Source: a bacterium (GTDB lineage: Bacteria; Patescibacteriota; Minisyncoccia; UBA6257; UBA9933). From it: a DNA stretch of 25,171 bases. The notes beneath the pieces are model-generated. The model was given only the letters and a program-made list of their open reading frames with translations, was not told where the DNA came from and ran no database searches. The translations under genes and the position numbers were made by a program. Below, in pieces: positions 8,058-25,171 of the stretch. Within the stretch, counting starts at the first letter, position 1. Every line of letters starts with the position of its first letter. The stretch is taken from the NCBI GenBank assembly GCA_021799155.1, contig JAJZBA010000001.1, forward strand, positions 1 to 25,171. Reading direction: 5' to 3'.

Positions 8058-8089
8058 ATAGAGTGTTATGCTATAGCATAACACTCTAT
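8058..8089. promoter_or_regulatory. Perfect 32-bp palindrome with core TGTTATGCTATAGCATAACA (copy 1 of 5)
   Basis: ATAGAGTGTTATGCTATAGCATAACACTCTAT is its own reverse complement. Confidence 0.8.
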
Positions 8090-8201
8090 TTTTTCTATTT
8101 TATATTTATAAATTAATAAATTAATCAAAATATCGCGACCGCGGAAATTTTAATTCAACCGCAACTCGATCGTAATAGAGAAGCATTCTAAGTAAAAATA
8201 A

Positions 8202-8316
8202 TATAGCACTTTGCCCACGATCGTGAGCAAAGTGCTATAAAATATTTTGCGACAGATTAGGGATTGACAAATTAAATCAAATATGCTTATATTTTACTGT
8301 CTCAATTTTTGAGACA
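8202..8316. promoter_or_regulatory. Palindromes and putative promoter upstream of the orphan ORF at 8362
   Basis: 38-bp near-perfect palindrome 8202-8239, TTGACA at 8264-8269 with a weak -10 near 8288, and the 8-3-8 palindrome TGTCTCAA-TTT-TTGAGACA at 8298-8316. Confidence 0.5.
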
Positions 8317-8361: not shown

Positions 8362-8823
8362 ATGCAAGAATCAATAAGAAGGTTAACAATTAACGATGAG
8401 GACATTGGCAATATGCTGCTTTACTTAGCTTACTTAGATTCTCCTAGTATTGAATGTCTTGGAGAACCGAGCAGTAAAAAATATTATATTGATCATTCTA
8501 GTCTTCCAGACAGCATAATTGGAGCGTTATTCTTTATCATTGATGAAGATGATGAATATATAAGAATAGAGCTCAGATTTCGAAAAGAACATAAGAAAAT
8601 AGACATTAATGTCTGGATTGCACCCTCTAAGATAGGCAAAGAGACAGTTGCATGGAAAGGAGAAGAGATAAATGGAAAACTTTTTCGTATAAATAAAAAA
8701 GTTGACGAGGATGATTCAATGATTAGATTCCCCTTAGGGAAAAGAATTAAAAAAGCAAATCTGTGGGATTTATTTGATGAAAAAAATACAAAAATAACGG
8801 CGTTAGAACACATTCTTGGGTAA
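8362..8823 (+). CDS. Hypothetical protein (153 aa), SD-led orphan
   Basis: AAGGAGGT 8347-8354, 7 nt before ATG; own terminator; no family recognised. Confidence 0.8.
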   Translation: MQESIRRLTINDEDIGNMLLYLAYLDSPSIECLGEPSSKKYYIDHSSLPDSIIGALFFIIDEDDEYIRIELRFRKEHKKIDINVWIAPSKIGKETVAWKGEEINGKLFRINKKVDEDDSMIRFPLGKRIKKANLWDLFDEKNTKITALEHILG

Positions 8824-23511: not shown

Positions 23512-23778
23512 ATGAAAAAAGACATCCATCCAACATATTATTCCGAAGCCAAAGTCCGCTGTGCCTGCGGCGCGGTTTTTACAATCGGCTCGACAAAACC
23601 GGAAATTCAAATTGAAATATGCAGTCAATGCCATCCGTTTTATACCGGCAAAGGAAAACTAATCGACGTTGCCGGCAGGGTGGAAAAATTTAAGGCGCGA
23701 ACCGAAAAAGCGGCCAAAACTCCAATAAGAAAAAAATCGGCGAAGAAAGCCGCAAAAAAAGAAAAGAAGACAAAATAA
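23512..23778 (+). CDS. rpmE: 50S ribosomal protein L31 (zinc-binding form)
   Basis: [30 protein letters not shown]; Lys-rich tail. Confidence 0.97.
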
Positions 23779-23779
23779 A

Positions 23780-23807
23780 AAAAGAGCCCTCCGAACAGGG
23801 CTCTTTT
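23780..23807 (+). terminator. Intrinsic terminator after rpmE
   Basis: AAAAGAGCCCT / AGGGCTCTTTT with a 6-nt loop. Confidence 0.8.
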
Positions 23808-23816
23808 AAATAAATT

Positions 23817-24269
23817 ATGAATTACTATTTCTTAAAAGAAGATTTAAATCATCTTGACTCAAAAATAAACGAAATTAAAAAGAAAATCCAAGCCGCTCGA
23901 AACGATAAAGCGCTGTCAACAACACAATCATCCGAAACATGGCATGATAATTATGGATTTGAAGAAGGAGTAAGACAAATCAATTTTTACGCCAACGAAT
24001 TAATGAAATATCTAGAAATTAAACAAAAAGCGATTATCGCTCCGATTCCGCAAAATAACAAAATTGGAATAGGAAGTTTTGTTCGTATTAAAGACGAAAC
24101 CGAAAAAGAAACCGATATTAAAATTGGAAGTTTTTTGGCTTTCGAAAATGATTCAATTTCTTATAATTCTCCTTTGGGCAGTCTTTTAATGGGAGGAAAA
24201 GTCGGCGAAATTAAAAATGGATTAATCGGAAACAAAAACAAAAAAATAGAGATTTTAGAGATAAAATAA
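23817..24269 (+). CDS. GreA/GreB family elongation factor-like protein
   Basis: N-terminal coiled coil, IGIGSFVRI, ISYNSPLGSLLMGGKVGE, IEILEI C-terminal domain; tip motif ETWHDN rather than DLSEN. Confidence 0.85.
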   Translation: MNYYFLKEDLNHLDSKINEIKKKIQAARNDKALSTTQSSETWHDNYGFEEGVRQINFYANELMKYLEIKQKAIIAPIPQNNKIGIGSFVRIKDETEKETDIKIGSFLAFENDSISYNSPLGSLLMGGKVGEIKNGLIGNKNKKIEILEIK

Positions 24270-24362
24270 TTCTAACGGAAACTATCGGCGAAGAATATCT
24301 TTTAGATTAAAATGTAAAAGCGTAAATGTAAAAAATGTAAATATAAATAACATTGAAAAATC

Positions 24363-24390
24363 TTACTGTTATGCTATAGCATAACAGTAA
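24363..24390. promoter_or_regulatory. Perfect 28-bp palindrome, core TGTTATGCTATAGCATAACA (copy 2)
   Basis: TTACTGTTATGCTATAGCATAACAGTAA. Confidence 0.8.
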
Positions 24391-24465
24391 TAATAAATAA
24401 TTATTAATAAATGATTATATAAATGATTATTTTGGTATTCAATTATCTATTTAAACCTTACCGAA

Positions 24466-24485
24466 TGTTATGCTATGTCATAACA
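24466..24485. promoter_or_regulatory. TGTTATG-CTATGT-CATAACA (copy 3), 1 nt from the stop codon of the TrpR-like gene
   Basis: Same 7-bp arms, asymmetric 6-bp spacer. Confidence 0.75.
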
Positions 24486-24486
24486 C

Positions 24487-24894
24487 TTAATAAGGAATAT
24501 AAATCGTTCCGTATTTTGTGCGCCTTGGCCAGCCTCGCCGTTTCGGCCTTTCCGAAGTCTTAAAAACGCTATATTCTTTCTTCTTTCGCTCTTTTTTGCT
24601 TCTTTCTAAATAACTCCTGTAGTTGTTTTCTGTTATTGCTTTTTTAACTACGCTGATTGTCTGAAGAGAAACAAAAAGTTTTCTACTTATCAATCTCGGT
24701 CCTTTGCCTAATAAAAGCTCTTTTAAAATAGCGGCGCGCATTACCAAATTATGACGTTCATTGGAAGTCGTTAATAATTCTAAGAACTCGTAGGATTTTG
24801 ATATTTTCCGCCAACAGGCAAGTTCCCATTCTTTGCGAGAAGAAAATTTGTCAAGCAATGGTAAACTCATTAATTGTTTTTTATTTATATCCAT
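24487..24894 (-). CDS. TrpR/YerC-like helix-turn-helix protein
   Basis: LLTTSNERHNLVMRAAILKELLLGKGPRLISRKLFVSLQTISVVK aligns by eye with the TrpR LLTPDERxxLxxRxxIxxxL...ISxATI pattern; very basic C-terminal tail. Confidence 0.65.
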   Translation of the reverse strand: MDINKKQLMSLPLLDKFSSRKEWELACWRKISKSYEFLELLTTSNERHNLVMRAAILKELLLGKGPRLISRKLFVSLQTISVVKKAITENNYRSYLERSKKERKKKEYSVFKTSERPKRRGWPRRTKYGTIYIPY

Positions 24895-24914
24895 ACATTA
24901 TCTTAATTATTATT

Positions 24915-24954
24915 TTATATTAGCTATTTGCTCGTTATATTAGTTATTTGCTCG
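24915..24954. repeat. 20-bp tandem duplication upstream of the TrpR-like gene
   Basis: TTATATTAGCTATTTGCTCG followed by TTATATTAGTTATTTGCTCG. Confidence 0.85.
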
Positions 24955-25012
24955 ACCTTTATTTTGTTTTTACTAACATTTTTGATTAAACTAATTATAC
25001 CATCACAGTAAA

Positions 25013-25032
25013 TGTTATGCTAAGTCATAACA
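25013..25032. promoter_or_regulatory. TGTTATG-CTAAGT-CATAACA (copy 4)
   Basis: Same arms, asymmetric spacer oriented like copy 3. Confidence 0.75.
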
Positions 25033-25139
25033 GTGTAATAAACATAATTCTTTTTTTGTTTTTAAACATTTCTCATTTTTCCTTATTCTTTCTTATTCTT
25101 ATTCTTTTCCTTTTTCTTTTTCTTTTTCTTTCTTATTTT

Positions 25140-25169
25140 TAAAGTGTTATGCTATAGCATAACACTTTA
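25140..25169. promoter_or_regulatory. Perfect 30-bp palindrome, core TGTTATGCTATAGCATAACA (copy 5)
   Basis: TAAAGTGTTATGCTATAGCATAACACTTTA. Confidence 0.8.
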
Positions 25170-25171
25170 TT

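Follow-up and report, generated by a model that had tools for sequence, protein, structure and literature searches.

The window analysed here, the whole 25,171-nucleotide stretch of contig JAJZBA010000001.1 from a patescibacterial genome, carries near its right end a minus-strand gene (24487–24894) for a 135-residue helix-turn-helix protein of the TrpR family (Pfam PF01371, Trp_repressor), set among copies of a 20-bp palindrome, TGTTATG-N6-CATAACA. As the first-pass annotation had described, there are five exact copies with invariant arms, at 8064, 24367, 24466, 25013 and 25145, against none expected from 100 shuffles, and a search of the window allowing up to three mismatches adds no further copy. 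The spacers likewise agree with that description: CTATAG in the copies at 8064–8083, 24367–24386 and 25145–25164, CTATGT in that at 24466–24485 and CTAAGT in that at 25013–25032. The three symmetric copies grow into longer perfect palindromes of 32 bp (8058–8089), 28 bp (24363–24390) and 30 bp (25140–25169), and their flanks all differ.

Two of the copies, 24367 and 24466, sit between the convergent ends of a GreA-like gene (23817–24269, plus strand) and the TrpR-like gene, a placement that the reanalysis bears out. The inner of the two ends at 24485, 1 nt off the minus-strand stop codon at 24487–24489. On the upstream side, the inner copy (25013–25032) and the outer copy (25145–25164, 7 nt from the contig end) are separated by a 110-bp low-complexity tract (25033–25144) that is purine-rich on the minus strand, with AAAGA/AAGAA-type repeats. 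The fifth copy stands alone at 8064–8083, 96 bp past a small ORF that is itself downstream of a PolB-exo-like exonuclease gene, and its 32-bp palindrome is followed by a T-run. The genome as a whole (479 kb in 67 contigs) holds eight exact copies, four of them within 800 bp around the TrpR-like gene, and none with one or two arm mismatches anywhere in the 479 kb. Beyond the palindrome itself, the flanks of the copies within the genome have nothing in common.

A putative extended −10 element of the TrpR-like gene, TGgTATAAT, lies on the minus strand at 24994–25002; it is a consensus match only, and homologous TATAAT boxes are also present in close relatives. The inner upstream palindrome precedes this element by 13 nt. 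Because the end of the site lies 13 nt upstream of the −10 box, the site would cover the −35 position of this consensus-inferred promoter, a geometry that fits autorepression. The proximal site stands 12 nt from the same −10 box in the related genome G016 and 14 nt from it in an 81%-identical relative, and among 39 bracketed loci (defined below) the proximal upstream palindrome has a median position about 50 bp ahead of the start codon. Related genomes are denoted here G016, G020, G021, G026, G034 and G050, and the source genome G000.

A TrpR-family protein outside the TrpR and YerC models

The TrpR-like protein scores 35.8 bits against Pfam PF01371 over residues 27–98, where the curated gathering cut-off is 27, and its paralogues in the genome are likewise above the cut-off. 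Against the NCBIfam models the scores are 23.6 bits for TIGR01321 (TrpR equivalog; cut-off 67.25) and 16.6 bits for TIGR02531 (YerC/YecD, the HisR subfamily; cut-off 42.2). Since both fall below their cut-offs, the protein is, as judged by these profiles, a Pfam family member but of a separate subfamily, neither TrpR nor YerC, and its ligand and exact action are therefore not transferable from either. A PDB profile search gives a YerC-like protein of S. aureus (3KOR, E 9e-4) as the nearest solved relative, followed by TrpR. An AlphaFold2 monomer model reaches a mean pLDDT of 74, and a monomer represents the intertwined dimer poorly; Foldseek on this model returns TrpR or TrpR-like proteins as 21 of its 27 top matches, all weak (E 0.5–1.3, TM 0.36–0.5). 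The recognition-helix region reads VSLQTISVVKK. Compared with TrpR, the protein has an extra SRKEWE segment on the N-terminal side, and its basic C-terminal tail is predicted to end in a β-hairpin. In Pfam and NCBIfam profile searches the 135 residues contain the helix-turn-helix only and no catalytic domain, HUH or other, and PADLOC returns no defence-system match. The 242 homologues that we collected are labelled Trp family regulator in Patescibacteria records.

The first-pass annotation had recognised no known site in the palindrome. It is indeed not the sequence of the E. coli trp operator, but its design is a familiar one. The published TrpR and HisR (YerC) operators are 20-bp palindromes, TGTAcTnGTnnACnAgTACA and TGTAnTA-N6-TnTTACA, respectively, whose consensus is lineage-specific, and autoregulation is common in the family (PMC9413887). 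In Firmicutes, roughly half of the genomes have a candidate site ahead of the HisR gene (PMC9413887). The window site has this same 20-bp palindromic layout with TGT...ACA ends (PMC9413887), and as such it is a candidate operator.

Bracketing of TrpR-family genes by their own palindromes

The joint occurrence of motif and gene across relatives, which had been proposed as a check, holds up. Of 61 related genomes, the motif is found in seven and close orthologues in eight, with both in six; the Fisher p value of 3e-6 overstates the case because the relatives are not independent. One genome bears the motif and no orthologue; it is 89% complete and split among about 80 contigs. In G026 the sites are present and the gene is absent. 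In G016, which belongs to a different genus (Candidatus Wolfebacteria), the orthologue has one copy beside its stop codon and two upstream.

The arrangement extends well past the window's own palindrome. All orthologues and paralogues examined have on their flanks a palindrome variant of their own, built on a common frame with a different sequence (TGCTATG..., CACTATG...GAC..., GCTTTGC... and ACTATC... among them), and the four paralogues of G050 each have a palindrome of their own. The source genome, at 0.48 Mb, encodes six or seven members of the family, the further paralogues being at C30:919–1365, C40:247–585, C57:830–1225, C35:13089–13445 with C22:4–144, and C61:2055–2417. Each of those on C30, C40, C57 and C35/C22 has its own palindrome on both sides, and in all four the downstream copy falls within about 30 bp of the stop codon, abutting or overlapping it in three. 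A stop-abutting position (0–2 nt) is also seen in G016 and in several metagenome loci. The palindrome families of the paralogues in the source genome include TACTATCAC-NN-GTGATAGTA (nine copies), AGTCCTCTTAAGAGGACT, GATAGTGTTAACACTATC and GTGTCATTTAAATGACAC. Several of these paralogues lie at contig ends, and the one on C40 is apparently frameshifted.

A gene was counted as bracketed if the same palindrome recurs no more than 450 bp upstream and no more than 300 bp downstream of it, and by this measure 39 of 50 homologous loci qualify. The loci, retrieved with an alignment of close orthologues, were taken from one GTDB genome per species, with titles naming Wolfe-, Jorgensen-, Lipton-, Colwell- and Brennerbacteria and Paceibacterota. 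The same criterion applied to the source genome picks out two of 344 ORFs, and both encode TrpR-family members. The family is patchy, being present in 29 of the 61 related genomes and at zero to six copies per genome among close genera. Many homologues lie on contigs of only 550–1200 bp with ends inside the flanking palindromes; because assemblies break at the palindromes, the genes are often on such very short contigs, and for the same reason binned genomes probably contain too few of them.

A handful of perfectly conserved palindromes per genome, some of them intragenic and some clustered at the gene of the protein that would bind them, is also what parS looks like beside spo0J, and the first-pass annotation had offered nucleoid organisation or segregation, after parS, matS or NBS, with the protein as an architectural factor, among its options. 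We consider this very improbable. A single 0.48-Mb genome can hold as many as six or seven paralogues, each with a different site of its own, while half of the related genomes lack any family member. The sites of G050 are scattered over four contigs. The candidate binder is of the TrpR family rather than of the ParB fold, there is no ParB-like partner, and the relative G034, which has no TrpR-family gene, carries canonical parS palindromes, two of them at 214.6–214.8 kb.

Covariation of the recognition helix with the half-site

Alignment of the proteins against the tabulated consensus half-site of each bracket shows that half-site position 3 varies with the residue just before an invariant Gln, where the recognition helix starts. 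Leu at this place goes with T/A at position 3 in five of five cases and Pro with C in 25 of 26, Ser is found mostly with CT(T/G)TG half-sites, and Arg or Asn goes with G. Further along the half-site, Gln pairs with G at position 7 and Asn or Ser with C at the same position. The window protein, with SLQ in its helix and TGTTATG as its half-site, agrees with the pairing of Leu and T. An independent check gives the same result, in that SLQ occurs in all eight metagenome TrpR-like genes beside TGTTATG sites and in two close relatives. The raw residue-base association has a p value of about 2e-6, and well-supported phylogenetically independent contrasts, on a tree built with the code residue masked, run in the expected direction in three of three cases, which are too few for significance. 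Taken together, the alignments point to an apparent residue-to-base recognition code in TrpR-family regulators.

Of the options raised by the first-pass annotation, it is thus the reading of the palindromes as binding sites of the TrpR-like protein that is well supported, by co-occurrence, by bracketing across the family and by the covariation of protein and site. On the strength of these comparisons we judge it highly probable that the protein recognises TGTTATG-N6-CATAACA.

Variable position of the gene and its flanking sites

Longer contigs from this organism reach beyond the window and show a divergent gene for a peptide-chain release factor, starting 133 bp past the outer upstream site. 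A search with the release factor shows that in G020 and G026 rpmE is followed directly by the release-factor gene and rplY, with no palindrome at the rpmE-prf junction. In the source organism, the GreA-like gene and the TrpR-like gene with its sites are inserted between rpmE and the release-factor gene (window 23512–24894). A search of relatives with the GreA-like protein finds no empty sites. The location of the TrpR-like gene and its palindromes varies among relatives: they lie between greA and prf in the window and in the 81% relative, between NUDIX and tgt genes in a 78% relative, and between comM and uvrD in G016. With such varying loci and a patchy distribution, the unit looks more like an accessory or mobile element than like a core regulator.

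These shifting locations would also suit inner repeats at which recombination excises a gene cassette, the second option of the first-pass annotation, or inverts it. In other strains of the same organism, and likewise in G016, the two inner copies are direct repeats, identical over 20 bp and asymmetric at the centre, and the C40 paralogue adjoins an XerC-like recombinase gene. There is, however, no recombinase gene in or beside the window locus, the inner repeats differ from each other both in the window and in the 81%-identical relative, and the rpmE-prf junction of relatives without the cassette bears no solo site. The contigs of four public runs over 23900–25171, as contigs a weak test, contain no recombined joints and no empty alleles; some of them end at 24444/24448 and 25015/25022, at the inner palindromes. 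Moreover, the sequence of the site covaries with the helix-turn-helix protein and not with any recombinase. The palindromes are therefore far more plausibly protein-binding sites than sites of excision, to which we assign only a slight probability.

Palindrome copies away from the gene

An exact search of metagenomes with the 20-mer returns at least 117 stretches, and contexts were counted in the 80 loci listed. Among the 125 sites in these 80 loci, 26 lie beside a TrpR-like gene; the remainder fall into 47 distinct contexts, 27 co-directional, nine convergent, five divergent and six inside ORFs. Some solo positions are conserved. A pair of sites occurs upstream of infB in loci whose IF-2 proteins are 74–100% identical, a site about 40 bp upstream of thrS recurs where the proteins are 54–67% identical, and the 8064 copy of the window has an orthologous site 265–285 bp after the PolB-exo-like exonuclease gene in metagenome contigs (protein 55% identical).

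Upstream of thrS and after the exonuclease gene, palindromes of three paralogue types stand side by side. Tandem palindromes of these types (TGCTATGCT, CGCTATGAC and TGTTATGCT) occur within about 90 bp upstream of thrS in the metagenome loci L167, L178 and L204, and at L147 11630–11700. Such mixed tandems suggest either combinatorial sites or preferred landing spots. Copies are also found within coding sequence. An 18-bp palindrome of family B inside pgk (G000:C49:2399–2416; L141 2341–2358) encodes TITRDS just ahead of the conserved LLENLRF motif, and in G016 a copy lies inside the linker of an ADP-forming acetyl-CoA synthetase.

Two simple accounts of the solo copies were considered and dropped. 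Next to the solo sites stand unrelated housekeeping genes, none of them common to G000, G016 and G026, which represent three genera, so that no coherent regulon emerges. TGtTATGCT was also considered as an extended −10 promoter in its own right, and this was given up because a scan of 204 unique flanks showed no fixed offset of a −10-like hexamer. Solo sites in convergent, divergent and intragenic contexts, with no fixed distance to a −10 element, would be odd for a simple promoter repressor, and the spread of the solo sites is better fitted by binding sites with more than one use than by a single promoter-repressor regulon.

Dispersal of this kind recalls REP elements and their RAYT partners: semi-selfish palindromes for which the bracketed protein would be the cognate partner, with gene and sites spreading as a unit and solo copies made by a host process. 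There are several points of resemblance. Cognate palindromes stand on either side of the gene and recur elsewhere in the genome, every paralogue keeps a palindrome family to itself as RAYTs do, tandem clusters of different paralogues' palindromes resemble BIME mosaics, and copies are found in every kind of intergenic region as well as within coding sequences, pgk and acs for instance. Genomes differ in copy number and in the locus of the unit, and the all-or-none perfection of the copies suggests copying rather than drift. On the other side, the protein between the flanking palindromes is no HUH Y1 transposase and has a helix-turn-helix fold only, there are only about eight copies per genome, and their flanks share nothing past the palindrome. 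Solo sites are also kept at orthologous positions across 55–75% protein identity, and this persistence therefore points to a host function. We regard a selfish origin of this kind as unlikely, if the least unlikely of the alternatives weighed here, and continue with the palindromes as sites of the TrpR-like protein.

Extension into longer perfect palindromes

Longer symmetry is not confined to the copies in the window. A perfect extension of at least 3 bp is present at 51% of 106 unique sites, compared with 2.3% in the null, and the mean extension is 3.7 bp versus 0.37 bp. GC content is 53% in the extension arms and 33% in the sequence immediately beyond them. At orthologous sites upstream of infB, 8-bp arms differ in sequence yet are equally complementary; because complementarity is kept with different arms, the comparison argues for pairing of the extension arms being favoured.

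Perfect palindromes of at least 20 bp number 34 in the source genome and zero to two in shuffles. That all such long perfect palindromes belong to the TrpR family is false. G034, without the family, has 12 per 400 kb (G034:C1:1–400000), including parS and terminators, and its ordinary-looking terminators are palindromic right through the loop. Because this relative also has long perfect palindromes, a genome-wide symmetrising bias, for example template switching at hairpins, may contribute to the extension.

A separate class comprises perfect palindromes of 26–42 bp centred on CGATCG, many of them with outer arms TTTACT...AGTAAA. Examples are found in the source genome at C41:7346, C51:4604, C66:1806, C9:14108, C41:930 and C59:1393, and elsewhere at G016:C5:22251, G016:C4:36084, G021 L143 3790–3825 and G034 365980–366021. 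The class extends to a relative that has no TrpR-family gene, and after rnhA it takes the same position in G016 and G021 with different arms. In the window, a near-perfect 34-bp palindrome with a CGATCG centre, TAGCACTTTGC...GCAAAGTGCTA, lies at 8199–8240; it is followed at 8265–8295 by a consensus promoter, TTGACA-N17-TTATAT, and both are upstream of an orphan ORF at 8362 led by a Shine-Dalgarno sequence.

Extended, GC-richer and compensating arms would be expected if the palindromes acted mainly as hairpins in RNA or extruded DNA, as terminators, insulators or stability elements, with the association with the protein secondary. The T-run at the 8064 copy and the many copies just past stop codons are in keeping with such a use. 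Yet plain intrinsic terminators do not account for the sites, as only two of 39 unique co-directional sites have at least six T in the next 8 nt, a U-tract-like run, the 8064 copy being one of the two. A loop does not need the two-fold symmetry of the site centre, nor does a stem need 14 invariant arm positions. The sequence of the site tracks the recognition helix of the protein, and the through-loop perfect palindromes in ordinary terminators of the relative without the family suggest a symmetrising bias across the genome. Hairpins as the primary function are accordingly improbable in our assessment, somewhat more so than a REP-like origin.

Proposed role of the palindromes

In the scheme that we favour, a dimer of the TrpR-like protein would set one helix-turn-helix on each half-site, TGTTATG(A/C)(T/C), leaving the central two bases free. 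From the promoter geometry we infer that the protein, bound at the inner upstream site over the −35 position of its own extended −10 promoter, most likely represses its own transcription. That the palindrome is the operator of the protein encoded at 24487–24894, and that this protein autorepresses, is likely when taken as one proposal; that autorepression is the main role at the locus is a narrower claim, which we hold to be somewhat better than even. The downstream sites, together with the outer upstream site facing the release-factor gene, would be part of a unit made of a regulator gene with cognate sites on both sides, which recurs across this protein family in Paceibacteria-type CPR genomes. 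Solo copies, namely that at 8064 and three on other contigs, would be further binding sites, serving at promoters as operators or, between transcription units, as protein roadblocks in both directions. The downstream site abutting the stop codon might serve in looping, might block convergent transcription, or might let the regulator feed back on its own transcript. The extension of sites into longer, GC-enriched perfect palindromes is not accounted for by repression.

A broader proposal would accommodate more of these features, and we put it forward tentatively, as more doubtful than probable. CPR bacteria of the Paceibacteria type may carry an expandable set of portable cassettes, each a TrpR-fold gene bracketed by its own perfect palindrome, whose half-site would follow a code of one or two residues where the recognition helix begins. 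The sites would serve less as classical promoter operators than as protein-loaded barriers or hairpins, effective in both directions, that divide up transcription in very compact genomes, the stop-abutting site feeding back on the transcript of the regulator.

CPR/Patescibacteria cannot be grown alone, and to our knowledge almost nothing is known about how their genes are regulated. A small regulator family in which every gene carries its own site on both sides is one whose predicted DNA sites can, for that reason, be read straight from the genome. From it one could derive predicted pairs of regulator and site in hundreds of uncultivated species, as well as a panel of orthogonal repressors with their operators. 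The apparent residue-to-base code could be checked with a few proteins and oligonucleotides, and the arrangement raises the question of why regulators are flanked downstream by their own sites.

Comparison with known systems

The literature searched contains no description of two-sided bracketing as a trait of the family, of multiple paralogue-site pairs in half-megabase genomes, of the residue-base correspondence, or of extended perfect palindromes. As a whole, the system would work in the manner of TrpR or HisR acting on an operator. E. coli TrpR shares with the window protein its Pfam family, its small helical helix-turn-helix build, a 20-bp two-fold operator with TGT...ACA ends and an operator at its own promoter that allows autoregulation, the operator and promoter of the window being putative. 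The half-site sequence differs, the sites here also lie downstream of the gene, paralogues are many per genome, and the SRKEWE segment and the basic β-hairpin tail are extra in the window protein. HisR (YerC/YecD) likewise keeps a constant 20-bp palindromic frame with a consensus that varies by lineage. It is usually single-copy with a coherent histidine regulon, whereas the CPR family ranges from zero to six copies, with no coherent pathway and with bracketing on both sides.

ParB-parS offers a likeness of another kind, a handful of perfectly conserved palindromes of which some are near the gene of the binder and some intragenic; it differs from the window system in protein fold, and here there are many paralogues with distinct sites, a patchy distribution and no partition ATPase. 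REP/RAYT systems, finally, share a gene flanked by cognate palindromes, paralogue-specific families, and dispersed intergenic copies that are often near gene ends and sometimes in mixed clusters. In contrast to them, the window system has no HUH domain, its copies number about ten and not hundreds, and its palindromes are perfect, with a two-fold symmetry that runs through the centre.
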